This document shows positions 8,629 through 24,989 of a stretch of DNA of 64,000 nucleotides, in pieces. A program made the translations under genes and the position numbers. The stretch's first letter is position 1; the number at the start of each line of letters is the position of its first letter. Under the pieces are notes generated by a model. It saw nothing but the letters and a program-made list of their open reading frames with translations, made no database searches and had not been told where the DNA came from. Source of the DNA: Pseudomonadota bacterium (GTDB lineage: Bacteria > Pseudomonadota > Alphaproteobacteria > Sphingomonadales > Sphingomonadaceae); assembly GCA_018240865.1 (NCBI GenBank), contig JAFEEY010000042.1:14545-78544 (forward strand), in the 5' to 3' direction.

Positions 8629-11600
8629 TCAGCGGAAATCGTGTGACTTGAACCGCACGACCTCCTCTGGATCCATGCCGTCAGCGTGAGGCGGCCAATA
8701 GCAGTTGCGCGGCTCGGGCTTCCAACCCTTGTCTCCGCGGTCGGGGGCGCCGGCATGGCGAGCTCCATCGCCTCGACCGGTCCGGTGCGGGAATGACAGC
8801 TCGCCCACTCGGTGAAGCAGATCTCCGTGATCGATGATCCGATCGCAGATGACGTGGATTACCTCCCCCTCTTTCTGGACCCTGCCCTTCATGCCGATCA
8901 TCGAGGCCGACATGACGGTACGGCGCTGCGCCTCGAACCGGTCCGGCCAGAGTATGCCATTCGCGATGCCTGTCTCATCTTCAATCGTGATGAAGAGGAC
9001 GCCTTTTGCCGAACCAGGTTTTTGTCGAACAAGGATTATGCCGGCGACCTCGACATGGCGACCGTCTCGGATGCTCGCGAGATCCGCGCAACGGGTCACG
9101 CCTCGCCGCGCCAGTTCGTCGCGGACGAATGTGAGAGGATGGGCGCGCAGTGACAATTGGAGCGAGCGGTAATCTTCGATCACCTCGCGACCATCCGTTA
9201 GCGGCCGCAGGGTGACGGCCGGCTCGAGCCCCTCGGCGCTCACGGTCTGCGCTTCGCGGTCAGCGGCAGCAAATAGCGGCAAAGGTGCCTCGCCGAGGCC
9301 CTTCACCTTCCAGAGCCCCTGGCGACGATCGGCGCCGAACGCGTGGAAGGCGTCGGCGTCTGCCAGCTTCTCGATAGCCGCCCGCTGGACCCGTGATCGG
9401 CGCCACACGTCCTCGACAGAATCGAACAGAGCGGTCGAGCGCGCGCCGACTATTGCCGCACCGTCTGCGTTCGAAAGACCGCGGACCTGGCGCAGTCCAA
9501 GCCGCACCGCGAGATAGCGGCCGTTCGTGGGCTCCAGCGTACAGTCCCACCGGCTCGCGTTGATGCAGGGCGGACGGACCTCCACACCGTGATCGCGTGC
9601 GTCGCGAACGATCTGCGCGGGCGCATAGAAGCCCATCGGCTGGGCGTTCATCAGGCTGGCGCAAAAGACGTCAGGGTGATGATGCTTCATCCAGGCCGAG
9701 GCATAGGCGATCTTCGCGAAGGAGGCGGCGTGGCTCTCCGGAAAGCCGTAGGAGCCGAAGCCTTCGAGCTGGCGGAAGGTGCGCTCGGCAAATTCGCGCG
9801 GATAATCGCGCGCCACCATCCCCTCGATCAGCTTCTCCGAGAAATGCGAGACCCCGCCGGTAAATTTGAAGGTCGCCATAGCCCGCCGCAAAGCGTCCGC
9901 CTCGGCGGCCGTGAAGCCTGCGCCGACGATAGCGACCTTCATCGCCTGTTCCTGAAAGAGCGGAACCCCCAGCGTTTTTTCCAGCACCGCACGCAGCTCG
10001 GGCCGGGGATATTCCGGCTTCTCCAAACCCTCGCGCCGCCGAAGGTAGGGATGCACCATGTCCCCCTGAATCGGCCCTGGCCGGACGATCGCGACCTGTA
10101 TGACGAGATCGTAGAAGCGCTGCGGCTTCATCCGCGGCAGCATTGACATCTGCGCGCGGCTTTCGATCTGAAAGGTCCCAAGCGTATCGGCCTTCTGGAT
10201 CATAGCGAACACCGCAGGGTCATCATCCTGCAGGTCCGCAAGGCCGATCTGGCAACCTTTCGCTTCCTCGAGAAGGTTGAAGGCGCGGTTCATGCAGCCA
10301 AGCATCCCCAAGCCGAGGACGTCGACCTTCATGAATTTCAGGGCGTCGATGTCATCCTTGTCCCATTCAATAATCTGCCGGTCGTCCATCGCGGCCGGTT
10401 CGATAGGTACCAGGTCGTCGAGACGGTCATGCGTGAGGACGAAGCCGCCGGGATGCTGGGACATATGGCGCGGCGTACCAATCAGCTTGCGCGCGAGATC
10501 GAGCGTCAGGCGCAGCCGGCGATCTCCGAGATCCAAATTGAGTTCTTCGACCTGCTTCTCGCCCACGCCTTCGGCCGACCAACCCCAGACCAAGCCTGCA
10601 AGCGAGGCGGTCAGATCTTCGGGCAGGCCCATCGCCTTGCCGACATCGCGCACCGCGCCGCGCGCGCGATAGCGGGTAACGACGGCTGTCAGAGCGGAGC
10701 GGTCACGGCCGTAGGTCTCGTAGATCCACTGAATAATTTCTTCACGACGCTCATGTTCGAAATCGACGTCAATGTCCGGCGGCTCGCGGCGCTCGCCCGA
10801 TACGAAGCGCTCGAAGAGTAACTCGTGCTTAATCGGGTCGATCGACGTGATGCCCAGCACGAAGCACACGCAGCTGTTCGCCGCAGACCCGCGTCCCTGG
10901 CAGAGGATGCCGCGACGTCGCGCTTCACGCACGATCGCATGGACGGTCAGGAAGTAGGGGGCGTAACCTAGTTCACGGATCAGCCGCAGTTCGTGGTCGA
11001 TCTGGCTGCGGTAAGGTTGCGGCACATCACCATCGAACAGCCGGTCGACCGCATCGTTCGCCATCTGCTCAAGGGCTTCTTGCGCCGTAAGACCCTCAAC
11101 CACCCGCTCGTGCGGGTATTGATAAGCGAGTTCGTCCAGACTGAAGGTGCAAGCGCGCGCGATGTCGACGCTGGCCTGCAGCGCATCGGGGTAGGCGCGA
11201 AAGCGCCGGGCCATTTCGTCGGGTGATTTGAGCGCTCGGTCGGCATTCACCTCCCGCCGGTAGCCGAGCTCGTCGACGGTGCACTTCTCGCGAACCGCAG
11301 TCACGACATCCTGCAGGAGGCGAGCCTCAGGCGCGTGATAGAGGACGTCGCCGGTCACGACGGCACGGACGCCGGCACCGCCCGCCTGACGGGCAAGCGC
11401 GTCAATCCGCACCGCGTCGTCGGGACGGCGATGCTGAAACAGCGCCATGTAGGCCCTGCGACCATAAATGGCCTTCAGGTCGGCAAGGCTGCTCAGATTT
11501 TCTGTGTCAGCCTCGTGCGGCAAGAGGATCGCGATGACGCCCGCTGACCACGGCTGCAGGTCATGCCAATGAAGAAGGCACCCGCCCTTCCCCGCGCGCT

Positions 11601-11892
11601 TCTTCCCGACGGTCAAAAGCCTGGTGACGCGCGACCACGCTGGTCTATCGGTCGGATACAGGATGAGGCGACGACCGCACGACAGATCGACGCGTGTGCC
11701 CGCTATCGATCGCACCCCAGTCGCTTTCTGCGCCTCCCAGGCGCGCACGACGCCTCCGACGGTGCCGATGTCACCTATCCCGAGAGCGGGATAGCCGAGC
11801 AGGGCTGCGGCTGAAAATAGCTCTTCCGGGCTCGATGCGCCGCGCAGCAAGGAAAAGTGCGTCAGCACCTGAAGCTCGACATAGGCGCTCAT
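8629..11892 (-). CDS. dnaE2: Error-prone DNA polymerase III alpha subunit DnaE2 (ImuC)
   Basis: PHP-domain N-terminus ([17 protein letters not shown]), about 1087 aa. ATGA overlap with the imuB stop at 11889-11892 sets the start. Confidence 0.93.
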
Positions 11893-13673
11893 GCGAAGAC
11901 GCCGTGGATCCACCAGCTAAGGTCGCCAGTGTTGTCGTCCATCCCATCGCCGCGCCGGAACAGCCAGTACCGGCCGCCATCTTCGTCCTCGACCCGATAA
12001 TAGTCCCTGACGGCCCAGACCTCTGCATCGCGCCGCCACCATTCGCCATGGACGCGTTCGGGTCCGTCGCCGGCGACGACACGGTGAGCTGTGCCGCGCC
12101 ATTCGAAGCGGCGGGGCGGCTGATCGGGAAGGAGTGCTACGACGCCCCATAGCGGCTCTGGTCGAGCGAACAGTCGAACCGGACGCTGCCATTTGGGCCA
12201 GTCGCCTGGAATATGGACAGGGTTCGTGCGTGCTACCGCGCGTTCCGGAACATGGCTTTCAACGGGAGCGATCCGAAAAACCGAGCCACTGCCGATACGG
12301 CCAGCGACCACATCCACCAAGCGAGCTGGGTCGCGGACGAGCGTGTCTCCTGCGAGCACCGCCCCTAGATCAATCGCGTCGAGAGGCTCCGTGTGGGGCG
12401 CTGCCAGCCAAAACCGCTCGATACCCAGGCCTGGGTCGATGCGCTCGATGCGCAGCTTCAGCAGTCGCAGAAGATGCGGCACCTCGCGTGTCGGCCGCGA
12501 CGTGCCGATGCCCACGATCTGTTCGCTGCCATCAACCCGCAGGCCGGCAAGGCGGAGCGAGCGCACGCCAAGCCCCCGCCCCTGCAGCAGTTCGGCGAGA
12601 TCATGCAGGAGATCGCCCATGACCTGCTCGATCGCGTCGGCGGTGCCGATCGGCTCTAGAAGGCGGCGCTCCACCACGGGGATGGATGGATCGTCGCGCG
12701 AAGTGATCGGCTCCGCGGTCGAGCCAAGCGCCTGATCGAGCCGGGTGATGGCCGGCAAGCCTAGTCGCCGCGCCAGGGGACCGCGCGCCACCGGCAGGAG
12801 ATCAGCTACTCTCTCGAAGCCGAAGCGCCGCGCTGCGCTGAGCGCCGTTGGGTCGAGCCTGAGTGCTGCGATCGGCAGCGAGGAGAGCGCGACCGTGGTG
12901 GCACCCGGCGTCACGCAGGCGAGATCGTCGGCGCCAAACCGGGCGATTGCGTGAGCCGCACCGGGGGTATCGGCGACGGCCACGCGAGCGGTAAATCCCG
13001 CCCGTCGGCAAAAGACGAGCAGTCTCTGGCAGAACTGGTACTCGCCGCCATGGAGGTGCTCGCACCCGGTGAGGTCGATCCACAGGCCATCGGGGGGCGA
13101 CACCGCTGCGATCGGCGACCATCGCCTAACTGCGAAAAGCGCCAGCCGATCGAGCAGCGCCGCGTCGGCCTCCGGCTCGGCGGGACGAAGGTCCAGGTCC
13201 GACACAAGCGCACGCGCGTGCGTGGCAGCCATGCCGACATGGATTCCGAGCGCTTGCGCGCCAGCGCACGCCGCGACGATCTCTTCTCTTCGCCCAACCT
13301 TCCCGAAGAGAGCCAGCGGGGTAGCGACCGCCTCCGCGACAGGTGCGGTCTGTTGCGGTTTCGCCGCTGGCGGCGCTTTGAATGGATGCTGGGCGGCCTC
13401 CGATCGACGGCCCAGCTCGCGGGCAGGCGGCTGCGCATGCCGTGGCAAGGTCGCGATCTGTGCCTCAACATCCGCGCGCGTGAGCATTCCGCTGCGGGCC
13501 CACCGGGCGCCCGGCCGCCAGCCGCCCCCGCGCGGGACCGAGCAAGCGCCGGGATCGTCGTCGACGGGTAGCTGGAGGCTCGGCCGTTTAGGCGGCCGCG
13601 TGGCGGACCGTTCCTGCCGTCTCAGCCGTTCGATGGCCAAGTGCGGCAGGAACGCGGAGACGACCCGTCTCAT
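11889..13673 (-). CDS. imuB: ImuB, Y-family polymerase-like protein
   Basis: Typical N-terminus ([16 protein letters not shown]) and position between imuA and dnaE2. Confidence 0.85.
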
Positions 13674-14346
13674 CGCTGCCCTCCACGATCAGGGAAAAAG
13701 CCTCGCCACCTCGTTGGCGCGCGAGTTCGACCGTCCAGCGCGGTCGTCCTACACCGGCGACGCCGAGCCTTTCCGAAGGGGCGCTCGCGATCCGCCAGCG
13801 AGTCCAGGCAGCCGATGGTTCGCCGAACGGATCATGATCACGGCGCCGCCGCCGTCGCAGGAGCAGGACCGGGAGGTCGGCATCAGCTGCAGCAAGCTGA
13901 AGGCGGCGGGAGGCGACCATCGAGACCTTCTCAGCCTCGGCAACGATGGCAGCGGGCGTACCGTCTCGGATCGCATCCTCGACCACCGCGAGCAACTCAG
14001 CGTCATCGCGCGGCTGGGCGTGAATGACGGCAGCTGAGGACAACCCCGCCTGAGACAACGCCGGGGCGTACAGATCGCTGCGACAGCTTGCCCAAAGGAC
14101 CGGCCCTGCGCTGATTGCAGCTTCCCGTGCGGCTATACCGCACAAAAACAGGGTCACCGCCGCATCGTCAACGAGCGAGCATGAATGGGCGGTCGCCTCA
14201 TGGAGCGCTCCCGCTCTCAGCCCCCCGCTGGCAAGCCGCTGGTCGATCTCGGGCACCCCGAAGGGCATCGTCCGGTACTCGGCGATGGGTGTCACGATGG
14301 AGCGAAGCTGGGCTATGTTCGCAAGGCGGGAATCGACGGAAGGCAT
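13588..14346 (-). CDS. imuA: ImuA (RecA/SulA-like SOS mutagenesis protein)
   Basis: FGVPEIDQRLASGGLRAGALHE motif. The start was moved to ATG 14346 because the longer ORF (14403) would run through the LexA box. Confidence 0.75.
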   Translation of the reverse strand: MPSVDSRLANIAQLRSIVTPIAEYRTMPFGVPEIDQRLASGGLRAGALHEATAHSCSLVDDAAVTLFLCGIAAREAAISAGPVLWASCRSDLYAPALSQAGLSSAAVIHAQPRDDAELLAVVEDAIRDGTPAAIVAEAEKVSMVASRRLQLAAADADLPVLLLRRRRRRDHDPFGEPSAAWTRWRIASAPSERLGVAGVGRPRWTVELARQRGGEAFSLIVEGSDETGRLRVPAALGHRTAETAGTVRHAAA

Positions 14347-14365
14347 AAAAACAAAGACTCGGAAC

Positions 14366-14380
14366 GTTCCCTTTATGTTC
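14366..14380. promoter_or_regulatory. LexA (SOS) box of the alphaproteobacterial direct-repeat type, GTTC-N7-GTTC
   Basis: gttc cctttat gttc read directly, 20 nt upstream of the imuA ATG. Confidence 0.6.
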
Positions 14381-14472
14381 CGCCATCCTTGTCTTTGGGT
14401 CAAGAGTTCGATCGTGTCGAGCTCCCGTCCGAGGACGACCCTTTCAGACCGCGCATCGCCTCGGCGGCAGCC

Positions 14473-15051
14473 CTAGTCCGTCCACTCGAAACAGCGACTA
14501 CGCTCGATGAACATCCGCAGGATACGATCGGATCGCCGCACCAAGTCACGATCGCGACCGTGCTGGGGCGATTTCGCACCGTGAAACAGATTGCAGCGAA
14601 CGCAATATATGGTCCGTAAGAGCTGCGGCCAGGTTGGAACATCTCCGTTTGTCCAGCCCACTGGTTGCATCCGGACGCCCTCGAGTCGACAGCGGTCGAA
14701 CAGCTCGTCGCGGTCCTCCGCCCAGAAGGCATCACGACCGAGCTTCTGCCGCACGTCCCGGACGTTGAGCACCGGCCATAATTGCGAGAAGGCCATCACG
14801 CGTCGTTGAAAATCGTCATCCTGCATCAGCTCTTCATAGGCATCGGTAGCCCGCCGGTTTTCGGCAATCGCGGTGATCATGGCCGCGTCATGGTCCGCGC
14901 CGGTCACCGATTCCATCCAGCCGTTGAAGCCCATCCAAAGGCTCATAAATGACATGAAGGCTGAGCGTTGCCGGTCAGCGTTATCGATCAGCTCGTGTGC
15001 AAGATCCGCCGTTTCCGGATCGAGCGATCGAAAATTGCTGAAGTTCACCAT
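14473..15051 (-). CDS. HEPN-motif protein (192 aa)
   Basis: IYCVRCNLFHGAKS gives Rx4H followed by G. A GAAGGA SD precedes the ATG. It lies 18 nt downstream of the 15070-16704 gene. Confidence 0.5.
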   Translation of the reverse strand: MVNFSNFRSLDPETADLAHELIDNADRQRSAFMSFMSLWMGFNGWMESVTGADHDAAMITAIAENRRATDAYEELMQDDDFQRRVMAFSQLWPVLNVRDVRQKLGRDAFWAEDRDELFDRCRLEGVRMQPVGWTNGDVPTWPQLLRTIYCVRCNLFHGAKSPQHGRDRDLVRRSDRILRMFIERSRCFEWTD

Positions 15052-15069
15052 CGTCGATATCCTTCCCGA

Positions 15070-16704
15070 TTAGGCGATCGCCGCCGATATCTGGCGAAGC
15101 GTAGCCACGAAGGTATCCAGTAGCTGACGACCTTGCATCGCTGCAGGCGCGGTATCATCGACCCCTGCCCGCTCCTTGCCGCTGGCGATGTTGCTCGAAC
15201 CAAGATGTGCGTCGGCGAGCCGAAGATCGTAGATCCCGAAGAGCGGCGCCATCATCGTGCTCGCGTCGTTCCCAGGCATTAGGCTGCCGAGGAGTTTCTC
15301 CAGCGCCTTATTCGAACCCGGCTTCCGACCATCCTTGGGTTTGGGCAGGTTAAGAGGCGCAAGGACGGCATCGACGTCGACCCGCTCCATGAAAAGGCGA
15401 GTGACCTCCTTGGCTAGCTCCAGCAAACCGTCTGCTTCAGCCGCCTGGAAGCGGTGCGCGCGGCGCAACAGCCGAGGCACGGCCTGGTCGTCGCGGAGGA
15501 GCGGGACGCCATATTTGCCGCTGAAAGCCGCGTCGATCTCCGCAAGCGCCGCGGCCAGCTGCGATTCTGGTGCGATCGTACTGGCCGGTGTCACATCCAT
15601 CTGAGCGGCGAACAACTCCTCTGCCACGCCGCCGTCGGGCGTTACGTTATGAGCGCTCCACAGCCGCTGCTCCCAAGGATCGAGTGCTCCGATGTCTTTT
15701 GCGAAGACCGTGATCAGGCCGAGCCGGTTGACCCCGAAGTGGACACCGGTGCTGGCGCCCAGGCCTCCGGTTTCCGCGCTGTACCAATGCAGGCTCGCGC
15801 CGCGATGGCGCATCAAGGTGGACACGACGGTGGGATCGAAATATAACCATGTCGACACCCCAGCCAGACTATCGCCCGACCTGCGGGCGCCGTCATTCTC
15901 CAGTATGAAGCTCGTGGTATGGGGATCCTTGTCGCCACGGATGCGTGTACTCAGCCCGCTTGGCTGGACCCATTCCGTTCGCCACATGGCGCCCATCGTG
16001 CGGTACTGATCACTGGGGGTCGGCCAGCGCCCCGGTCCGGTTCGACCCTCCCGCTCGTCCCTGCCCCTGACTTCGGCGAAAGCGTCGCCTGGCCAGTCAT
16101 AGACTGGCTTGTCGATGGTGGTGGCGGTCCGCTGGTGATAGCTCGAACAATACAGGGCCATGCCGCGGGCGCTGAGGTAGTCGCCAAGGAACTCCGGCCT
16201 GATCTCAAGCAGGATCGGGCGGTCCTCAGCATCTTGTTTCAATCGCGCGACCTCGGCCCAGCCCTCCTCCGGTCGAAACCAGCAATCACCTTCACGTAGA
16301 AGGCGGAGGGCCACGACCAGGTCGGGATGCAGGTGCCAGATGTGAAGGTGTTCGTCCTCGAGATACTGGTCGATCACGAGATTGAGACCGATCGGCTGAG
16401 TGGGCCTGCCATAGAACAGGTCGGAAGCGCGATAGCCCCACGGTTCCATGCCGCCCCGGTGTGGGCCGACCCCCAAGTCGCTCCAGACGACCTTGTCGCC
16501 CTCTGATCGATGGGTGTCGAAGATCGCGGCAGTGGCGATGCCCGTATATTCCCGCAGCTCGACGATACCGGCCTCAGGTGGGACGATCACGACATCAGCA
16601 TCGTGGCGGAGCGGTATCCATGGCCGCCCTTGCAGCGGCAGCACATCACGCAACTCAAAATATCTCTGTACGATCGGCATAGGCACCCCCGGGTAGCGGA
16701 GCAT
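15070..16704 (-). CDS. Large uncharacterised protein (~544 aa); start is ATG 16704 or 16680
   Basis: Long coding-like ORF. The only motif seen is a C-terminal DLRLADAHLG (Rx4H-like). The ORF-track TTG start at 16812 was judged an over-extension. Confidence 0.55.
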   Translation of the reverse strand: MLRYPGVPMPIVQRYFELRDVLPLQGRPWIPLRHDADVVIVPPEAGIVELREYTGIATAAIFDTHRSEGDKVVWSDLGVGPHRGGMEPWGYRASDLFYGRPTQPIGLNLVIDQYLEDEHLHIWHLHPDLVVALRLLREGDCWFRPEEGWAEVARLKQDAEDRPILLEIRPEFLGDYLSARGMALYCSSYHQRTATTIDKPVYDWPGDAFAEVRGRDEREGRTGPGRWPTPSDQYRTMGAMWRTEWVQPSGLSTRIRGDKDPHTTSFILENDGARRSGDSLAGVSTWLYFDPTVVSTLMRHRGASLHWYSAETGGLGASTGVHFGVNRLGLITVFAKDIGALDPWEQRLWSAHNVTPDGGVAEELFAAQMDVTPASTIAPESQLAAALAEIDAAFSGKYGVPLLRDDQAVPRLLRRAHRFQAAEADGLLELAKEVTRLFMERVDVDAVLAPLNLPKPKDGRKPGSNKALEKLLGSLMPGNDASTMMAPLFGIYDLRLADAHLGSSNIASGKERAGVDDTAPAAMQGRQLLDTFVATLRQISAAIA

Positions 16705-16848
16705 GACTACCCCTGATTGCAGAGACCTTGAATCAGCTTTTTGCGATATTCTACCGTGCAGCAGGCGCCGTCGCGGAAGTCGCCGGTATTGGCTTGGTGA
16801 TAGCTGCCACAAAGCACGGGACCATGTGGGCGAACGGTATCAGGAGGG

Positions 16849-17271
16849 ATGATGAAGCTTACCAGCGACGCTGTTGAAGTAGTGAACCGCAATGCGCTCG
16901 TCACCGTGGCACTGAACCAAGGCTACAACGCCTATCTGCCGGTCTACGACAATGGCATCGATCTGATCCTGTTGAACGAGGCGACTGGCGATACCAAACT
17001 GGTGCAGCTCAAAGGCCGGTGGACCATCGATAAGAAATATATCGGCCGAAACATCTGGATCGCGTTCCCCGACCGCGGTGTCTGGTACGTCGCACCGCAC
17101 GACGAGATGCTGCGGTTAGGGGAAAGGCACACCGCAACAAGCAGCTGGGCTCGAGGCACCTACAGCAAGAGTCCTCTCAGCAGGAGCGATTGCGAAGAAT
17201 TGGCGTCCTATCGCTTCGGCGATCCGGACACGGTCATGGATGATGCCGCGGCTTTGAGCGCGGGCGGATAA
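16849..17271 (+). CDS. Minimal PD-(D/E)xK-fold nuclease-like protein (140 aa)
   Basis: YDNGIDLILLNE...TKLVQLKGR fits D...(D/E)xK spacing. An AGGAGG SD lies upstream. GC content is visibly lower than its neighbours. Confidence 0.5.
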   Translation: MMKLTSDAVEVVNRNALVTVALNQGYNAYLPVYDNGIDLILLNEATGDTKLVQLKGRWTIDKKYIGRNIWIAFPDRGVWYVAPHDEMLRLGERHTATSSWARGTYSKSPLSRSDCEELASYRFGDPDTVMDDAAALSAGG

Positions 17272-17318
17272 CATCCACTTTGGTGCAAAGCGCCGCAAGC
17301 TCTCGTGCACAACCTTAC

Positions 17319-17777
17319 TCAGAGGGTGAGACCGATGCACAAAAGCAGGATCGCCGCCGCGCCCGCAGCGAGCTTCCCGCCGGCAACGACGCGCGCCGAT
17401 CGCCCCAAGCGAAGCCGCTTGCCCGTCCTGTCCATTCCGGAGCGGAGCCCGAGCACGCCGTCGGTCGCCAATACGGTGCCGATGATGAAGAGCAGAACCG
17501 AGATTGCCTTGGCAAAGCCGTGAGGTGACAGCCCGGTGACGATGAAGACCGCAACGAGCCCGATCGTGAGCAGGCCGTACAGTGCAAATCCGATGTCGAG
17601 CAGCCCGCGCAGCCGCTTCGGCCCGTTCCAGTCCGTAGGCCGTCGAAGGAGGATCATCGGGCGCAGGCAGAGCTGGCAGCTCTCGAGATTGCTGTCGCGC
17701 GGCCAGTGATTGATCAGATGGCCGCAATGCGGGCACCCCGGTCGACGGTATGGGAATGCGGTCGCCCGGATCAGCAT
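17319..17777 (-). CDS. Membrane protein with an N-terminal CxxC...CxxC zinc-ribbon-like segment
   Basis: CPHCGH...CQLC followed by 3 hydrophobic segments. The start overlaps the upstream stop by 7 nt. Confidence 0.45.
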   Translation of the reverse strand: MLIRATAFPYRRPGCPHCGHLINHWPRDSNLESCQLCLRPMILLRRPTDWNGPKRLRGLLDIGFALYGLLTIGLVAVFIVTGLSPHGFAKAISVLLFIIGTVLATDGVLGLRSGMDRTGKRLRLGRSARVVAGGKLAAGAAAILLLCIGLTL

Positions 17778-17986
17778 GGCGAAGTCTCCGGCGCCGGTGC
17801 CAGATAATAGGCCGTGATGGCCGCCCCGATGATCATTCCCTCGACGGTGACCGACTTACCGATCAGGTGTCCGGCGATCACGTCCCCAACGAGCCGCCAG
17901 CGCATCCCGTCTCCCTCGATCAGCATCAGCCCACGTGGCGTCATGTCCACCACGCCGGTTAACCGGACAGGGCTGCTGGCCGTCAT
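17771..17986 (-). CDS. Small hypothetical protein (71 aa)
   Basis: ATG 17986 forms an ATGA overlap with the upstream stop at 17983. The ORF-track N-terminal extension was discarded. Confidence 0.35.
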   Translation of the reverse strand: MTASSPVRLTGVVDMTPRGLMLIEGDGMRWRLVGDVIAGHLIGKSVTVEGMIIGAAITAYYLAPAPETSPC

Positions 17987-18486
17987 TCTGCTGCCTCGGC
18001 ATAGACCCGGGTTTCCTCGGCCGAGGCGCCATTGAAGCATACCAAGGGACAGTGGAGGAGAAGCCGGCCGTGATAGTGCAGCGTGCGCCCGTCCAGCCTG
18101 ATCGGATCGCGAGCGAGGCGTTGGCAGGATTTGTTCGATCGGTTCCTGAAAGCGCAGGGCGCGGCGAGCGGGGAGAGGGGCACCTTGGTCACTTCTTCCG
18201 CTTGGGATTGAGGCGGCGGTTCGCCGAAGAGGTCGCACTGTTCCATTACGGGTTCCGTTCTCCCCCCGAGTGGTGGCCGCGGTTGCCAGCGCTGGACCAT
18301 GGCGGCGTGAAGTCGTCGCGAGATTTTCCGTCGATTCAACGAAGCGCTGCCAAGCGGCGTTGACTTCGTCTTCGGCGCGTTTGCGTCCCTCGCTGCCTTG
18401 CCGAAGCCCCAGCGGAGCTTGCCGGGATCAACCTTCTGCCGCTGGCGATACCGCTCGCGCGTATAGTCGCGGTCGTCGATCGCCAC
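17983..18486 (-). CDS. Hypothetical basic protein (167 aa, GTG start)
   Basis: GTG 18486 overlaps the upstream TAG (TAGTG). GC3-rich codons. Low certainty. Confidence 0.3.
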   Translation of the reverse strand: MAIDDRDYTRERYRQRQKVDPGKLRWGFGKAARDANAPKTKSTPLGSASLNRRKISRRLHAAMVQRWQPRPPLGGRTEPVMEQCDLFGEPPPQSQAEEVTKVPLSPLAAPCAFRNRSNKSCQRLARDPIRLDGRTLHYHGRLLLHCPLVCFNGASAEETRVYAEAAE

Positions 18487-18806
18487 TACGCAGCCCCTTC
18501 GACGCTGGATTGATAGTAGACGCCTTGGTCGCGGTGCATCGCGATCTTCAGAAAGGCGGGGCACTCGACAAGCACCGCCAACCACGCCGCGCACTCGGCC
18601 CTTCCGAGCGCCGACGAGTGACTGGCCAGTTCCACCCAGACGAGGAGGGCGAGGCCGGCGATAGTCCCGATGCGGACGTCCCGCCGAAGGCCGGCAGGAA
18701 GCTTTAGAATGCTCGGTAGGCGCACCCATGCCGGGCTGGCGAGATCACCCCTGAGGTACAGCGGCGATGCGGCGTAGATCGCCAGTATGATCTGGGTCTC
18801 AAGCAT
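18486..18806 (-). CDS. Small membrane protein (106 aa)
   Basis: Two hydrophobic segments. ATG 18806 overlaps the DUF2726-like stop by 8 nt. Confidence 0.4.
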   Translation of the reverse strand: MLETQIILAIYAASPLYLRGDLASPAWVRLPSILKLPAGLRRDVRIGTIAGLALLVWVELASHSSALGRAECAAWLAVLVECPAFLKIAMHRDQGVYYQSSVEGAA

Positions 18807-19332
18807 GGTTCGCCCCCCGATCCGCGATCGCGCCCGCAGATCGATCCGAATGAAGCAACGGTGCGAGCGCCTCACGGACATTCGCCAGCGTCGGCTTGGT
18901 CTTTGCCGCGATGCGGATCGTCGTGTAGCCAGCGCCCGATGTCATCGCATCACGCTTTGCGTCGGTCGCGGCGTTATGGGTATAGTCGTCGACCTCGATC
19001 AAGGCGACGATCGTTCCAGTCTCCCGGTCCTGCACTACGAAGTCGATGATCTTCTGCGAGAAGCTGTTTCGATCAGCGGGGGACACCTTGCGCCCGAGCC
19101 GACGTGGAACCTGCAGGAGAGCCCCCATTGCCACCTGCGCGTGGATGCGGTGTGCGGGCAGGGCGCGCTCGATCGCCGCGAGCATGGCCAGCTCGCGGTC
19201 GGTAAGAAAGCGCTTGGCCACCGGCGCGGGCGGTCCACTCGGTGCCGCCGCGCTTTTCACCAGCGCAAGTATAATGACCGCGCAGACGATAAGAAATACG
19301 GTCGCGATTGGCGATCCGAACAGTTGTGTCAT
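18799..19332 (-). CDS. DUF2726-like (restriction-endonuclease-fold) protein with an N-terminal TM anchor
   Basis: FLTDRELAML...IDFVVQD...IVALIEVDDYTH pattern. ATG 19332 follows a GAGGGG SD. Confidence 0.6.
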   Translation of the reverse strand: MTQLFGSPIATVFLIVCAVIILALVKSAAAPSGPPAPVAKRFLTDRELAMLAAIERALPAHRIHAQVAMGALLQVPRRLGRKVSPADRNSFSQKIIDFVVQDRETGTIVALIEVDDYTHNAATDAKRDAMTSGAGYTTIRIAAKTKPTLANVREALAPLLHSDRSAGAIADRGANHA

Positions 19333-19391
19333 TGCGTCACCCCTCGGAATGGAAGGCGCGGCCAACAACCGGGGCCGCGCCGGTCTGCCGG

Positions 19392-19592
19392 TTACCAGCC
19401 GTCGCGGCGCCCCTCGCCGCTGTCCTTGAGCCCACGCCGGTCCAGACTGGAGCGCCGGATCTCCAGTTCAACGCCATCGCCCTTGTCGCGGGTTCGGATG
19501 TCGCGGGGATCCACATTGTTGCGCTTGGCGAAGTCCTCGGCTGCCTTGTCGCTGCCGAACTTGCCGACGTCGTCGAAATCCCATCCACTCAT
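19392..19592 (-). CDS. Small acidic hypothetical protein (66 aa)
   Basis: ATG 19592 lies 5 nt after an AAGGAGA SD, directly downstream of the relaxase gene. Confidence 0.4.
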   Translation of the reverse strand: MSGWDFDDVGKFGSDKAAEDFAKRNNVDPRDIRTRDKGDGVELEIRRSSLDRRGLKDSGEGRRDGW

Positions 19593-19631
19593 CGTCGTCT
19601 CCTTCAATCCGGCGGTCCGGCCGGTCGGTCG

Positions 19632-22600
19632 TCACAGATCGAGCCCCAGGCTGCGTTCCGGCAGCGGCGGCAGCACGTCGCTGCGGTCGGGCTTGAGCTC
19701 GGGCGGTGATTTGAGGGGATCGCCCGGTGCAGACGCAGCCTGGCCCTTCCCGGCAGTCGGAAGCGGCGGGTCGCCTGGCAAAGGCGGCAAGTCCGACAGA
19801 TCGACAGGGCCGGGATCGAATTTTTCGCGCGGGCTGGTGCCCGTGCCGCGTTCCCGGTCGACGTCGAGCCGACCCACCGTTTCGAGCGCCGAGGTCTTGT
19901 TTCCGGGGTTGTTGTCGAGCTGGCGCTCGAGCTTCGCTTTATCGTCCACCACCATCGTCATTTCGTCGCGAACGCGGGTGACGCCGACGTTGAACAGGCG
20001 CTGGTTGGACAGGTTGCGCTCCTGGCTCGACATGACGGTGATCGCCTTGTCGGTGGTGATGCCCTGCGCCATGTGCATGTTCAGCGAGTAAGCGAGGTCG
20101 AGCCGCGACAGCATCGGATCGCCCAGGTCGAGCGTCAGCCGCTCCTTGCTCGCGGTTTCGACGGTGACGCCGCTCGCATCGATGGTGAGGACGCGTGCGA
20201 GGGCGGCGTTGTGGAGCCCCCTCCCCTTGTCGTTGGCGGTCCAGCGAATGCGATCGCCTTCGCGCAGATGAAGATCTTTCTTCTCGCTGAGCTGAAGGCG
20301 GTCGCGCTTCTCGGTTGGCGAGAGTTTCTGTGGGTCGAACCGGATGCGCCGGCGACCGTCGAGAAGATCGACCTTGCCGTTGGGGTGGACCTTGTCGACG
20401 TCGTAGCGGCCGGCGGCGAGGCCGACGTCCTGACCGCCTCCCCTGCCTACCTCGAGGGTTTGTCCGGGCCGGTAGGTGGATGCGTACCGCAACTCCTCGC
20501 GCGTGGTATTCACCCGCTCGTAGACGGTGAGGTGAATCCCCTCGCCGCGCACGGTCTTCTCGGCCGCAAGCCCGTCCTGAATGCGTTGATTGATGATCGC
20601 GCGCGAGGCGCGGCCCGACGCGAACACCGCCGTCGACTCCCGATCGGCGCTCGAGAGTCCGAGCCACATTTCGGCTGCGTGCAAGGCCGGGCTATTGTGC
20701 TCGATGACGCTGTCGCCAAGCACCTTCATGGCCTTGCCCGCTTCGCCGACATTGGCCAGGGCCGCGACGGTGCGCAGCTGATCGGTGCGCTGGCGGATGT
20801 TCTCGTCCATGCGCGCCATGGTTCCCCCGCCGGCCTGGATGAGCGCGAACGACTTTCCGGCATCGATCGAGGAGAGCTGCTGCCGGTCGCCAACGAGAAC
20901 GAGTTTGTCGACGCCCAGCGCGGCCGAGATTTGATGGAGCTTCAGCATGTCGTCGCTCGACACCATCGAGGTCTCGTCGACGACGAGCATCTGGCCGCCG
21001 AACACGGCCCGCGCCTGCTCATAGGCGTCGCCCTGCCGGTTCGTGACGTGCCGCTCGTTGGCAAGAATGAAGGAGGCGATGGTCTGGGACTTGATTCCGG
21101 CGCCCTCTGCGAGGTCCGCCACCATCTTGTTCTGGAAGGCGAGGCCCGTGACGGCCCGCCCCTCCGCCTCGGCGACCCGCGCGACGGACTGCAGCATGGT
21201 CGACTTGCCGGCGCCAGCTATGCCCTGCACCACCACCGTCCGGTCCTCCGAAGAGACAATCAGTGTGGCGGCGGCGAGCTGCCCGGCGTTGAGCTCGCGA
21301 TCCGCATGTGCCTGCAAGCGCTCGGGAGCCTCGCTGGCCGCAATCATCGGAGTGGAAGCGCCCTTCCCCTGCTCCACCGCCTTGAGAATGCGCTCCTCGG
21401 TCCTGAGGGCCTCCTGCGTGGTCACCATGCGGGGCCGGGTGTCGCCCACGCGCGCCTCGCCCGCGATCAGCTGGCCGCGTTCCACAAGCTGAGCGATCCG
21501 CCGCTCGACATGGTCGACCGTGACGCCCTTCAGACCGAGATCCAGAGCGGTCTTGCCGAGCTGGTTGACGTTGAAGGCGGCTTCACGCTCGGAAAGCATG
21601 CGCACGGCGGACGCAACAGCCAGCTGCGCACGAGCTTCTGCCGGCGAGTGGGTCACCCGAGCCAGGCCCCGATCGACGAGAGGATCGTGCGGCTTGAGGA
21701 CGTCGCCAAGCTTTTCCCAGGCGTTCGTAAGCGCCTCGGAGACGGCGCGATAGCCGCGCTCGAGAGCGCTTCCCGGCTCGCGCTGTTCGGATCTTGCAAG
21801 CGCCGCCTCGAGCAGGGCCTTGCCATCGAAGCCGAGGGCCGCCGCCTTCTCGATCCACTCGCGTCGGAGGCCGTCGCGGTCCTCAACATTCAGCTTGGGA
21901 TCGCGCGTATTGGTGGTGACGCTGTCGCGCCCTTTGGGAGAGGTAATGCCGAGCTCGGCCGCCTTCTCGAGAATGGCTTCGCGGCGCTGGCTGAACGCCT
22001 CCAGCACCGCCTTGGGGACACCGGCTACCTCGAACGTCCCGTGCTTGCCCTTGAGCTCTAGCCTGTAGCCCAGCTTCTCCATCTCCTCGCGCAGGAAGGC
22101 GTGGTAGATCGAGCCGATCACCGTGTTGTTGCTCCAGATCTTGTCGGCATGGAGCGCCTGCCATTTGCCGTCGGGCATCTTGGTCAGGTTGGCGATTACT
22201 GCGTGGACGTGCGCCTGAGGATCGAGGGCGCGGCTCGTGTCATGCTGGAACAAGGCGAAGACGAGGTTGCCGGTCTGCACCGGAACCTTGCGCCCTTCCA
22301 CGTCCTTGCGCCCTTCGGCGAGGTTCTTCTCGACCCAGGCCATCGCCCGCGCGACCGCCTTCATGTTGGCGCCGTTCTCGCCGAGGATCCGCTTGTCGCC
22401 GGTGACATAGGCGAGCAGCGACACCGACTTCGGAGCCGAGAAGGTGAGGTCGACGCCCGATCGCCGGTTCTCGACCTGTGCCACGCCCTCCCCGCTCGGC
22501 AGAATACCGTTCAGGATGCCTTCGAAGGCATCCTTCGCCACCTCGCCGGACAAGCCCAGGTCGGAGGCGCCCTCGCCGCCCCAGGCACTGACCTCCGAGC

Positions 22601-22682
22601 TGTCGTCGACGGTGTAATAGTCGTCCTTGGCGAAGTAGCCGGCGGCGCCGGAGGCGGAACGGACGGAGGCGACCGAGAGCAC
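19632..22682 (-). CDS. MOBF-family conjugative relaxase/helicase (TrwC/TraI-like)
   Basis: The N-terminus (LSVASVRSASGAAGYFAKDDYY...DLTFSAPKSVS...HDTSRALDPQAHVHAV) closely parallels the TrwC relaxase domain. The C-terminal RecD-like helicase has Walker A (GIAGAGKST). Confidence 0.92.
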   Translation of the reverse strand: MLSVASVRSASGAAGYFAKDDYYTVDDSSEVSAWGGEGASDLGLSGEVAKDAFEGILNGILPSGEGVAQVENRRSGVDLTFSAPKSVSLLAYVTGDKRILGENGANMKAVARAMAWVEKNLAEGRKDVEGRKVPVQTGNLVFALFQHDTSRALDPQAHVHAVIANLTKMPDGKWQALHADKIWSNNTVIGSIYHAFLREEMEKLGYRLELKGKHGTFEVAGVPKAVLEAFSQRREAILEKAAELGITSPKGRDSVTTNTRDPKLNVEDRDGLRREWIEKAAALGFDGKALLEAALARSEQREPGSALERGYRAVSEALTNAWEKLGDVLKPHDPLVDRGLARVTHSPAEARAQLAVASAVRMLSEREAAFNVNQLGKTALDLGLKGVTVDHVERRIAQLVERGQLIAGEARVGDTRPRMVTTQEALRTEERILKAVEQGKGASTPMIAASEAPERLQAHADRELNAGQLAAATLIVSSEDRTVVVQGIAGAGKSTMLQSVARVAEAEGRAVTGLAFQNKMVADLAEGAGIKSQTIASFILANERHVTNRQGDAYEQARAVFGGQMLVVDETSMVSSDDMLKLHQISAALGVDKLVLVGDRQQLSSIDAGKSFALIQAGGGTMARMDENIRQRTDQLRTVAALANVGEAGKAMKVLGDSVIEHNSPALHAAEMWLGLSSADRESTAVFASGRASRAIINQRIQDGLAAEKTVRGEGIHLTVYERVNTTREELRYASTYRPGQTLEVGRGGGQDVGLAAGRYDVDKVHPNGKVDLLDGRRRIRFDPQKLSPTEKRDRLQLSEKKDLHLREGDRIRWTANDKGRGLHNAALARVLTIDASGVTVETASKERLTLDLGDPMLSRLDLAYSLNMHMAQGITTDKAITVMSSQERNLSNQRLFNVGVTRVRDEMTMVVDDKAKLERQLDNNPGNKTSALETVGRLDVDRERGTGTSPREKFDPGPVDLSDLPPLPGDPPLPTAGKGQAASAPGDPLKSPPELKPDRSDVLPPLPERSLGLDL

Positions 22683-22685
22683 TGG

Positions 22686-24989
22686 CTAGATCCCCATGTC
22701 CATGCCGTCAGGCTCGCGGCCGGCGGAGAAATCCTGGCGTAGCTCGACGATCGTCTGATCCTCGACCCGCGGCGCGCTGTGATGGCTGCGACCGTCCTTT
22801 CGATCATCACGTTCTCGGGCCTGCGCTGCCTCCTGCTCTGCTGCCGCGCGCGCAGTCTGTGCGATGTCGGCCGCATGTTGACGGGGTGCCTGTCCGTCGC
22901 GGTCGGCGTTGTTTTCGTGAACCGCCTTGCTGGTCGATTCCTTCTCCGCATCGACCTCGGCAGACAGGATGCGCGCGGCCATTTCCTTCGCCACGTTGAC
23001 CGGCTCTACCACCTCCTGGATCACCTGGCCGGCACCATCACGCCCACCGGCTTCACCACCCCCTTCTCCGTCGAACACTTCCTCTCCGCGCTTCGATCGC
23101 ACCGGCTTCATGTCGGGGCGGGGCAGGAAGCCGTCCGCGACCTGGGGATAGTCCTTCCAGACGAGCTTGATCCGAGCGGCCGGGAAGCCGTCGGGGAACT
23201 TCACGAAGCCATGCATCGAGGGCAGGTTCGTGATGTCGTCGGCGATCACGAGCGGTTCGACCTGCTTGCGCGGAGTCAGCGTCGAGGCGTCGCGCGTGTT
23301 GTTGTAGCCGTAGCTGTAGGCCTCATCCATCTGGCGGACTTCGCGGTTGCCGATATAGCGGGCGCACTGCTCGGCGGTGTCGAGATCGGCGGTCGCGAGG
23401 ATGAGCTTGGAGCGGGCAAGCGAGGCGAGATTGCGGGCGCCCTGCTCGCCATAGACCTCGACCAGCTTTTCGAAGCTGTGGATGCCGAGGATCATTGCGC
23501 CGCCGAAGGCGCGGGCCGTCTGAAGGCCATTCTCGATCGCAGGCAGGCGGTGCAGCGCGCCGACCTCATCGAACATGAACCAGGTCCGCAAGCTGCGCGT
23601 GCGCGGCAGCGTCATGAGGCTGGTGATGGCGATGTTCATCCAGAGCGTCAGCAGCGGCCGGTTCATCTCCAGATCGTCGTAGTCGGAGGTGACGAACAGG
23701 ATCGATCCGGGCGCGCGCTCGGTGGTCATCCAGTGCCGGATCGAGAACGGCTCTCCTTCGTCGGGCAGGAAACGCAGGACCTGCGCATTGGTGTTGAAGA
23801 CGGCGCGGATCGATTCCGCCATGCGGGCCGCTTCCGGGGCGGTCAGCGGGTCGGCGATGGTGTTCGCGAGGAAGCGATGCACCCGCTTCAAATCGGCGGT
23901 CATCAGGTTCTCGGCGAGCGCCAGGTTGGTGGTCTGGCCGCGCTCCTGAAGCCGGACGCACATCTCGATGAACAGGGTGCGGGCCGCGAGCGCCCAGAAG
24001 GGCTCGGACGAGCCGCCATCGGAGGGAATGAGCGCCGCGGCGGCCGACGTGAAATGGCTGTAGGTCGAGCAGTCGTTGAAGATCGACCAGGCCGGGCAGC
24101 GCTGGTCCATCGGGTTCAGGATCGTGTCGCGCATGGGATCGTAGAAGGCTTCGACATAGGCGCCGGTGAGATCGAAGATCACGGCGCTGTCCTGGCGCTG
24201 GCGCATCTGGCTGACCAGACTCCTGAGCTCGGTGGTCTTGCCCGCGCCGGTGGTGCCGATCAGCATGGAATGGGACTGCTCGAGGCGGTGCGGATAGGGG
24301 ATGCCGGCGAGCGTATAGGGATGGTGGATGCCGCCCGCCTTCCGTGTCGCGAACGGCAATTTGAGCACGGCGGCGGACGAGCGGCCGGGGAAGAACTCGC
24401 GCGCGTCCTCCGCGAATTTTTCCGCATTGTGCTGCGCGATTTCGGAGACCAGCACGGCGCGATCGACCAGCATGGCGCCGCGCTCATGGCGTTCCTGAAG
24501 GATCGAACGCCCACGCCTGCGCGAGATGTCGACGAACCAGATGGTGAGTGGCGCGACCACGAAAACCGAGACGAGGATCGAGCCGATCAGCGCCCGGATG
24601 GTGGTCTCCCAGGCCTGCTGCACGGCCGGGATATAGGGCACCACGGGCATGACCGTTTTGTAGATCTCGCCATTGGGCAGGGTGACGTTGACGCGCTTGT
24701 TGGGATTGAGGTCGACCCAGTTCCAGAGCGCCGAATAGATCTTCATGCAGACGAGCTGGAATCCGTGCTCGTCGAGGCGGATCGAGAGGATGACGAACCA
24801 GGCCGCGAGGAAGGCGAAGAACCAGACCATGATGGGCAGCCGCGCGCCCGAAAACCACATCAGCATCTCGTGGGTGAGAAGCTGGCTTCCGCGCGTGAAA
24901 TTGCCGGCGTTGCGATGGACTTTGCCCCGCGCCGAATGATGGGTCAGGGGTATGGCGCGGCCATCGGTGCGGATGTCCTTACGCGCCAT
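22686..24989 (-). CDS. Type IV coupling protein (TrwB/TraD/VirD4 family)
   Basis: N-terminal TM segments, Walker A (GTTGAGKTT), position upstream of the relaxase. ATG 24989 was chosen; the ORF-track extension to 25388 overlaps the RHH gene. Confidence 0.9.
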   Translation of the reverse strand: MARKDIRTDGRAIPLTHHSARGKVHRNAGNFTRGSQLLTHEMLMWFSGARLPIMVWFFAFLAAWFVILSIRLDEHGFQLVCMKIYSALWNWVDLNPNKRVNVTLPNGEIYKTVMPVVPYIPAVQQAWETTIRALIGSILVSVFVVAPLTIWFVDISRRRGRSILQERHERGAMLVDRAVLVSEIAQHNAEKFAEDAREFFPGRSSAAVLKLPFATRKAGGIHHPYTLAGIPYPHRLEQSHSMLIGTTGAGKTTELRSLVSQMRQRQDSAVIFDLTGAYVEAFYDPMRDTILNPMDQRCPAWSIFNDCSTYSHFTSAAAALIPSDGGSSEPFWALAARTLFIEMCVRLQERGQTTNLALAENLMTADLKRVHRFLANTIADPLTAPEAARMAESIRAVFNTNAQVLRFLPDEGEPFSIRHWMTTERAPGSILFVTSDYDDLEMNRPLLTLWMNIAITSLMTLPRTRSLRTWFMFDEVGALHRLPAIENGLQTARAFGGAMILGIHSFEKLVEVYGEQGARNLASLARSKLILATADLDTAEQCARYIGNREVRQMDEAYSYGYNNTRDASTLTPRKQVEPLVIADDITNLPSMHGFVKFPDGFPAARIKLVWKDYPQVADGFLPRPDMKPVRSKRGEEVFDGEGGGEAGGRDGAGQVIQEVVEPVNVAKEMAARILSAEVDAEKESTSKAVHENNADRDGQAPRQHAADIAQTARAAAEQEAAQARERDDRKDGRSHHSAPRVEDQTIVELRQDFSAGREPDGMDMGI

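Follow-up and report, generated by a model that had tools for sequence, protein, structure and literature searches.

A variable cargo zone on a sphingomonad conjugative element holds three independent accessory genes, one of them encoding a candidate sensor-HEPN protein

Three uncharacterised genes, here called A, B and C, lie side by side in a 64,000-nucleotide (nt) stretch of DNA from a Pseudomonadota bacterium of the family Sphingomonadaceae (GenBank assembly GCA_018240865.1, contig JAFEEY010000042.1, positions 14,545 to 78,544), which is referred to below as the window and whose own numbering is used throughout. Gene B (15070..16704, minus strand) is an open reading frame (ORF) of 544 amino acids (aa) read from ATG 16704, and belongs to a family without Pfam match. 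It is followed on the same strand by gene A (14473..15051), an ORF of 192 aa from an all-alpha, likewise Pfam-less family, and the 18-nt spacer between the two (15052..15069, minus strand) contains the ribosome-binding site of A, GGAAGG. Gene C (16849..17271, plus strand), an ORF of 140 aa preceded by AGGAGG, is divergent from B; the intergenic region between them measures 144 bp from ATG 16704 (16705..16848), and no sigma-70 consensus was found in it.

A comparison of loci from other genomes demonstrates that A, B and C are independent genes and not a three-gene module. Indeed, among 43 B loci obtained by scanning a genome collection with a B profile, A was found beside B in 2 of the 34 loci with at least 800 nt of downstream sequence (missing in 32), and C in 2 of the 40 loci with at least 800 nt upstream (missing in 38). 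With an A profile, 79 loci were recovered from metagenomes, 53 of them with at least 1.7 kb upstream, and B was beside A in one of these and missing in 52; that one (locus L056) belongs to the same element family and also carries C. Every co-occurrence among these genes was in a close relative of the window element. Nucleotide homology ends at gene borders: locus L004, with a B protein of 80% aa identity, shares the relaxase gene and B with the window and diverges at the B stop codon; loci L054 and L055 and the Sphingomonas taxi plasmid STP2 have only A in common with it (15052..14478, 81% nt identity); and L003 has only the B-A pair in common (16740..14475, 78.6% nt identity), with C missing and the flanks otherwise unrelated. 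Elsewhere, homologues of C reside on integrative elements and plasmids, in no case accompanied by A or B. The sequence-only reading of this DNA had joined the three genes into a single module; the counts above show them to be independent elsewhere, and the module is given up here, although a weaker, two-gene link between B and A is possible within one sublineage. The description that this reading gave of the locus holds, namely the ORFs, the spacing of 18 nt and 144 bp and the divergent orientation of C, the peptides RLADAH (B), RCNLFHGAK (A) and DLIL...VQLK (C), and a GC content that is lower over C (about 0.57) than in the flanks (0.61-0.66).

Gene B could also be read from TTG 16812, which would give 580 aa and is unlikely, or from its second methionine (ATG 16680, 536 aa), which is the start in most homologues. 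In the AlphaFold2 (AF2) model of B (predicted local distance difference test score, pLDDT, 89; predicted template-modelling score, pTM, 0.70), the chain is beta-rich to about residue 360 and helical from 379 to 543. The N-terminal domain (about residues 1-365; 15610..16704, minus strand), mostly beta strand according to DSSP of the model, is presumed to be a sensor or binding domain. The C-terminal helical domain (about residues 375-544; 15073..15582, minus strand) comprises helices 379-398, 426-437, 464-475, 478-497, 503-513 and 521-543 by the same assignment, with short extra helices between the earlier long ones. Conservation was assessed on an unbiased set of 44 homologues of 24-47% identity from a full HMMER scan, for a mean column identity of 28%. 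The invariant polar residues are D175, E380, R418, R495 and H500; D175 is the sole one of the N-terminal domain, where otherwise mainly aromatic or aliphatic positions are kept, and the other four belong to the helical domain. R495 and H500 delimit an Rx4H motif (R495-L-A-D-A-H500; 15205..15222, minus strand); helix 478-497 carries R495 at its end, and the loop between it and helix 503-513 contains H500.

Gene A, for which 202 homologues were found, carries a motif of the same type (R152-C-N-L-F-H157-G-A-K160; 14572..14598, minus strand), in which R152, C153, N154, F156, H157, G158 and K160 are invariant in 32 homologues of 58-80% identity; the distant relatives of A were retrieved via this motif, so that its conservation among them is partly ascertainment and no test of it. 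The AF2 model of A (pLDDT 91.5) is all-alpha; helix 141-156 has R152 at its end, and H157 begins the loop leading to helix 164-185. Judged from the alignments, the conserved Rx4H motifs of B and A exceed chance. In HEPN domains, the Arg stands at the end of a helix and the His in the following loop (PMC3710099), and the predicted placement of both residues in the two models agrees with this rule, for B as far as the DSSP assignment can tell. From motif and predicted topology, B and A are read here as putative HEPN proteins. The two motifs that had been noticed in the sequence are conserved and lie in helical domains.

The neighbours of A differ from locus to locus. On plasmid STP2, A (89-90% aa identity) follows a DpnII restriction-modification (R-M) pair and an operon of SMEK, small ORF and DUF2326 genes, a trio that we take to be an ABC-three-component, Lamassu-like arrangement. 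In other loci, A stands between a DUF1156 methylase and a DUF499 ATPase, is followed by GmrSD_N or by nSTAND3, comes after an nSTAND1-like NTPase and a predicted membrane protein (in Pseudomonas), or has CTD7-MC3-LmuB operons beside or upstream of it. A behaves as a discrete cassette landing in varied defence operons. In the Sphingomonas panaciterrae copy of the locus (L001:9659-9700), A has a 1-nt deletion after codon 2 and B is intact, and an N-terminally truncated 160-aa form of A is annotated by NCBI on 10 contigs. An A-family protein of 194 aa is also found in a recurrent, tight three-gene operon (7-13 loci; L073:2547-6868, and also L076, L079, L080, L082 and L088), preceded by an XRE-HTH protein (about 780 aa) and followed by one of about 435 aa, which has no Pfam match and overlaps the end of A (e.g. 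in L073); A and this downstream gene were also noted in L065, L067, L075, L077, L078, L081 and L083. This operon is a candidate for an undescribed system in its own right.

The family of B is large. A HMMER search of 1.84 billion representatives gave 1074 relatives with E<=1e-3 (clusters at 50% identity), 343 of them with E<=1e-30; most are 540-600 aa long. A separate search gave at least 292 close homologues of B. Members of the family come from Alpha-, Beta- and Gammaproteobacteria, Fusobacteria, Verrucomicrobia and others. B is usually solitary: about half of the loci have the following gene on the opposite strand, and the flanking genes vary between loci. In Sphingomonas donggukensis, B is surrounded by an integrative and conjugative element (ICE) backbone (T4CP, DUF3363, SLT, TraF-type peptidase, DUF2840, DUF736), and in a Brevundimonas ICE by AbiEi/AbiEii, a relaxase, ArdC, DUF736, SRAP, an imuA-like gene and ImuB, then a CTD6-MC2 operon. 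In a Neorhizobium island beside an integrase, SduA_C (Shedu) and an OLD-TOPRIM ATPase with a UvrD helicase, the Gabija pair (GajA/GajB-type), lie directly upstream of B. On plasmid pZRK30-2 of Fusobacteria bacterium ZRK30 (L153:1463-9558), the stretch between hsdR and hsdM-hsdS of a type I R-M operon holds an inserted 189-aa hypothetical gene and a full-length B relative of 30% identity (order hsdR-hyp-B-hsdM-hsdS). Other plasmid neighbours include DUF3800, DUF4238, sce7725/7726 and RES (Shinella), a helicase, a restriction endonuclease, FRG and DUF2971 (Pseudomonas), DUF499 and ThiF/multiubiquitin genes (Nostoc), and B lies near repABC on pRL8 of Rhizobium johnstonii. The Pfam families in 105 non-redundant B neighbours include integrases, nSTAND3, N6_Mtase, SWI2_SNF2, HEPN_Toprim_N and AbiH, as well as ArdC, T4CP, TrwC, RepC and phage capsid/tube proteins. 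This distribution is that of a horizontally mobile defence or conflict gene.

Several lineage-specific features were seen around B. In three Brevundimonas loci (L146:7179-8000, L147 and L148), a 273-aa gene without Pfam match ends exactly at the start of B. In a marine sphingomonad/erythrobacter subclade (L005:9614-10117, L006, L008 and L041), a 167-aa protein whose start overlaps the B stop codon (ATGA) is a different lineage-specific partner of B, with a conserved Cys ... His ... Asp arrangement reminiscent of a papain/transglutaminase-like fold. In a Caulobacteraceae metagenome-assembled genome (L026:1806-3617), a 603-aa DUF7380-DUF4209 protein ending in VRNELAHG is encoded downstream of B; DUF4209 overlaps a HEPN family (PMC3710099), and the locus is a second instance of a HEPN-type gene behind B, this one from a family other than A. 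Some members of the B family have N-terminal extensions of about 110-330 aa (P0097, 842 aa; P0359, 730 aa; P0371, 795 aa), that of P0097 containing a GNSFGLAVAIA...ATGAL stretch; these may be extra sensor/effector domains or gene-call artefacts.

The family of C is narrow, with 97 homologues, mostly from Sphingomonadales and other Alphaproteobacteria. Its DLIL...VQLK motif (16960-17013, plus strand) is part of a pattern E10, D38, Q53, K55 (E...D...QxK) that is invariant in 25 homologues, in keeping with the restriction-endonuclease-type arrangement first noticed in the sequence. Pfam scans of these 25 proteins gave PDDEXK_5 for two (best E=0.0088) and Mrr_cat and Mrr_cat_2 for one member each, all below the curated thresholds, so that the family scans yielded nothing usable, and C had no match among PDB sequences. 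It is plausible from this residue pattern that C is a minimal restriction-endonuclease-fold, PD-(D/E)xK-like protein. In small integrative elements, homologues of C lie beside an integrase and Prim-Pol or DUF3987; others come after a recombinase or lie near a HEPN-MNT pair. On a plasmid of Sphingopyxis sp. 113P3 (L161:77-5453), a C-family gene (57% identity) lies 10 nt after a 1637-aa type ISP R-M gene, a hint that nucleases like C may serve as accessories to R-M.

A B protein identical to that of the window is recorded in 44 blocks of public assemblies. The flanks displayed for three of the copies consist of genes for a type IV secretion system coupling protein, a TrwC relaxase, DUF2726 and DUF5818 proteins, followed by C and the divergent B and A, and beyond A by an ImuB-type polymerase (IMS) and then DnaE2; the S. 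panaciterrae scaffold (L001) is 99.2% identical across window positions 10001-23000. These imuA-imuB-dnaE2, relaxase and coupling-protein genes confirm the setting that had been proposed, a conjugative element beside an SOS cassette. An SOS-box-like site, GTTCCCTTTATGTTC (14366..14380, plus strand), is located between A and the imuA-like gene, just within the 5' end that the ORF of this gene has when TTG 14403 is taken as its start codon. It is one of three perfect GTTC-N7-GTTC matches in the 64-kb window, a sequence that we take to be the alphaproteobacterial LexA consensus. The site probably marks a LexA-type operator at the start of a separate LexA-controlled unit, and the true start of the imuA-like gene is probably further downstream than TTG 14403. 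That a perfect site separates A from this gene argues that the SOS cassette is a unit of its own. The cargo beyond C, between C and the relaxase (window 18799-19368, minus strand, and about 17.3-18.7 kb), includes a DUF2726 protein, a DUF5818 protein and several small ORFs without Pfam match; DUF2726 is a restriction-endonuclease-fold DNase (PMC3710099). In locus L004, the relaxase and part of the DUF2726 region are shared with the window and the gene upstream of B is another one, which gives the zone the look of a variable hotspot. No plasmid match to the region was found with Megablast, and tblastn found none of A, B and C in 50,697 phage genomes.

The explanation preferred here, held with a little more than even confidence, is that the locus is a stack of independent cargo in which B is a self-sufficient sensor and HEPN RNase protein of defence or abortive infection. 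A, B and C would be independently mobile accessory genes stacked in the variable cargo zone of a sphingomonad ICE, between the relaxase/coupling-protein genes and the imuA-imuB-dnaE2 cassette. B could be a latent, single-chain sensor-plus-HEPN protein in the style of ApeA or PrrC, whose beta-rich N-terminal domain (about 365 aa) would recognise a cue of infection or invasion. Its C-terminal helical domains may dimerise, R495 and H500 forming a composite Arg/His site, and the dimer could then cut RNA (tRNA, rRNA or mRNA) without metal ions, which would arrest the cell or the invader by growth arrest or abortive infection. A would be a separate HEPN-like cassette, inserted after B in one sublineage and after various defence systems in other genomes, that may act alone or as a plug-in effector, and C an unrelated gene of the minimal restriction-endonuclease fold. 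The candidacy for defence put forward by the sequence-only reading thus survives in part: homologues of all three genes are found among defence and mobile-element genes, but they do not make up one system.

Several observations weigh against this explanation, most of them concerning the HEPN assignment. None of the profile and structure searches ties B or A to an established HEPN family: Pfam, NCBIfam and PADLOC were negative for 36 close and 44 distant homologues of B (Pfam cut-offs E<=0.1 and E<=0.01, respectively) and for 32+33 homologues of A; PDB sequence-profile searches (alignments A1-A5) gave nothing or noise (actinin, EF-hand proteins); and Foldseek of the B and A models against the PDB gave nothing with E<=1e-3 and no HEPN structure. 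Some homologues bear the UniRef100 names 'ApeA N-terminal domain-containing', 'Apea-like HEPN domain-containing' or 'PD(D/E)XK endonuclease domain-containing', which we guess to be machine-predicted; they were kept as hints and set aside as evidence, since no model match stands behind the ApeA/HEPN labels, and labelled members P0022, P0120, P0190, P0195 and P0228 have no match to the Pfam models ApeA_NTD1 and HEPN_Apea even at E<=10, the scans of P0022 and P0120 being empty altogether. The residue after the HEPN Arg is usually a polar N, D or H, whereas position 496 of B is mostly L or Q (L 19, Q 12, H 3, I 3, N 3, K 2, others 2; n=44), and A departs from the HepT-like signature by an invariant Cys at this place and a later G-x-K. 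As regards independence, B and A move as a 2.3-kb unit in two different flanks, that of the window type and that of L003, and the association of B with defence islands rests on individual examples and not on a statistic.

The genes themselves, described from the outset as uncharacterised, remain so in the searches made. Against Pfam, NCBIfam and PADLOC, A, B and C gave nothing meaningful, and no PDB sequence matched; the PADLOC screen for known systems found no match for the window proteins, none for B or A at E<=1, and none at E<=0.01 for the 44 B homologues. Foldseek of the B model against BFVD gave nothing with E<=1e-3, and no mention of these families turned up in the literature searched on ApeA_NTD1, on the locus tags of pRL8 and on ICE-borne HEPN. 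The B family is thus absent from Pfam, NCBIfam and PADLOC, and its N-terminal domain is without structural match. Two other assignments were tried and rejected. B as a PD-(D/E)xK nuclease fails on its E167-x-R/K169 pattern, which is not conserved in the wider family; and a toxin-immunity pair, in which B would be the polymorphic toxin and A the immunity protein, fails on the lack of C-terminal domain swapping in B, on the loci, the majority, without a downstream same-strand gene, and on the catalytic-looking motif of A, its independent distribution and its frameshift where B is intact.

It is somewhat unlikely that B and A form a real two-gene system in one sublineage, as a heteromeric HEPN pair or as sensor and effector with A in the role of an accessory effector. 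The short same-strand spacer with its ribosome-binding site would suit such a system, as would the retention of the pair in L003, despite unrelated flanks, and in L056, the tight embedding of A-family genes in other multi-gene operons (e.g. the overlap with the next gene in L073), and the fact that HEPN active sites are composite across a dimer, which is established knowledge and is described for ApeA (bioRxiv 10.64898/2026.01.26.701840). However, the pairing is confined to B proteins of at least 84% identity, B being found at 80% identity without A and A at 90% identity without B; A is frameshifted in element copies with an intact B; the spacer is not conserved in length (about 35 and about 70 nt in related copies); and hhalign of the B and A profiles detected no homology between the C-terminal domain of B and A. 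A wider proposal, tentative and rather doubtful, combines this pairing with the explanation preferred above: B would be a widespread, unnamed single-protein immune family with a new sensor fold and a diverged HEPN RNase, and A a promiscuous plug-in HEPN effector of at least five kinds of defence operon (ABC-three-component/Lamassu-like, DUF1156-DUF499, GmrSD, STAND NTPases and the XRE-HTH three-gene operon), recruited to B as a two-HEPN system in the ICE lineage.

The genes could instead serve the mobile element, B and/or A being a latent toxin for ICE addiction or for attack on competing plasmids and ICEs. This is unlikely: no conserved antitoxin-like partner accompanies B, and B is found, besides, within a type I R-M operon and on defence islands that are not conjugative; its repeated occurrence as ICE or plasmid cargo near a relaxase, ArdC, DUF736 or repABC and the absence of all three genes from the phage genomes searched speak for it, and stabilisation and defence are in any case compatible with each other. 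Quite improbable is a further alternative, in which the Arg/His pairs are not RNase sites, B and/or A being non-catalytic (ligand-binding or scaffold) or B acting via its N-terminal domain, for instance as a nuclease with a distant resemblance to the Avs3 effector. The best Foldseek match of B is indeed Avs3 (8dgc_A, E=8.5e-3, probability 0.99, 208 columns), and the missing similarity to any HEPN model and the atypical residue after the Arg point the same way; yet this match has a TMq of 0.18 and is not tied to a particular region of B, D175 is the only invariant polar residue of the N-terminal domain in the wide family, with E167-x-[RK]169, D128, D140 and E171 not conserved, and the invariant polar residues cluster in the C-terminal domain. 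Highly improbable, finally, is one undescribed three-component defence system of B, A and C, which are adjacent in the window and in the near-identical copies L001, L002 and L056, but of which C accompanies B in so few of the informative loci, is absent from L003 where the B-A pair is kept, has homologues that, with neither A nor B present, adjoin integrases, Prim-Pol, a recombinase or a type ISP R-M enzyme, and lies on the opposite strand with a different GC content.

If the stacked-cargo explanation with a self-sufficient B is true, B would be a large and taxonomically broad addition to the sensor and HEPN class of abortive infection, invisible to Pfam, NCBIfam and PADLOC. As the fold of its presumed sensor matches no solved or predicted viral structure, the trigger would be new biology. 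The A family, as a small effector-like cassette shuffled among unrelated defence operons, bears on the modular assembly of defence systems. There is also a lesson for annotation: that genes adjoin on a single mobile element does not argue for a system, and here the co-occurrence test overturned the module reading.

Among known proteins, C resembles the minimal PD-(D/E)xK nucleases (PDDEXK_5, Mrr_cat; Hjc-like), with E10 ... D38 ... Q53-x-K55 in about 140 aa, and differs from them in that the matches of its relatives are all below threshold and its family is narrow. A is like the small HepT-like HEPN toxins in being small and all-alpha, with Rx4H at a helix end and the following loop, and, like the HEPN genes embedded in R-M and defence operons, lies inside or beside such operons. 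Unlike HepT/HEPN-MNT, it has no match to PF05168 or another HEPN family, no Foldseek match and no MNT partner; neither the window nor the surveyed loci have a minimal nucleotidyltransferase next to A or B.

B has a close parallel in ApeA, a system reportedly introduced by Gao et al. in 2020. ApeA is a single-gene HEPN abortive-infection system of Escherichia coli that cleaves tRNA anticodons and is latent until its cue is bound, so that no antitoxin is needed (bioRxiv 10.64898/2026.01.26.701840). By an analogous, predicted architecture, B would share with ApeA a single chain of about 550-600 aa, non-catalytic N-terminal domains and a C-terminal diverged HEPN domain with a catalytic Arg, and both are solitary genes in defence islands. 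However, ApeA of E. coli is predominantly alpha-helical throughout, whereas the first 365 or so residues of B are beta-rich, and the ApeA-type PADLOC and Pfam models do not match B, A or about 150 homologues. The N-terminal domain of B fits the ApeA-NTD1 domain that precedes HEPN(Apea) (Anantharaman et al. 2013), described as about 300 aa, mostly beta, with several conserved aromatics and N-terminal to HEPN (PMC3710099, Table 2; prototype Cyanothece PCC7424_5050), a likeness to the description as published. None of the B-family members scanned matches any Pfam model at E<=0.1 (close homologues) or E<=0.01 (distant ones), so membership in that class is unproven.

A third comparison is offered by PrrC, a latent RNase that serves as a backup to restriction. 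Proteins of the PrrC/RloC family, HEPN proteins that act as anticodon nucleases, are often encoded in R-M operons and have N-terminal ABC-ATPase domains (PMC3710099, Table 1). B is without NTPase motif or match, and most B genes lie outside R-M operons; the B relative of pZRK30-2, like PrrC/RloC, is embedded in a type I R-M operon. By analogy, this embedded copy of B suggests a latent RNase that could back up restriction.

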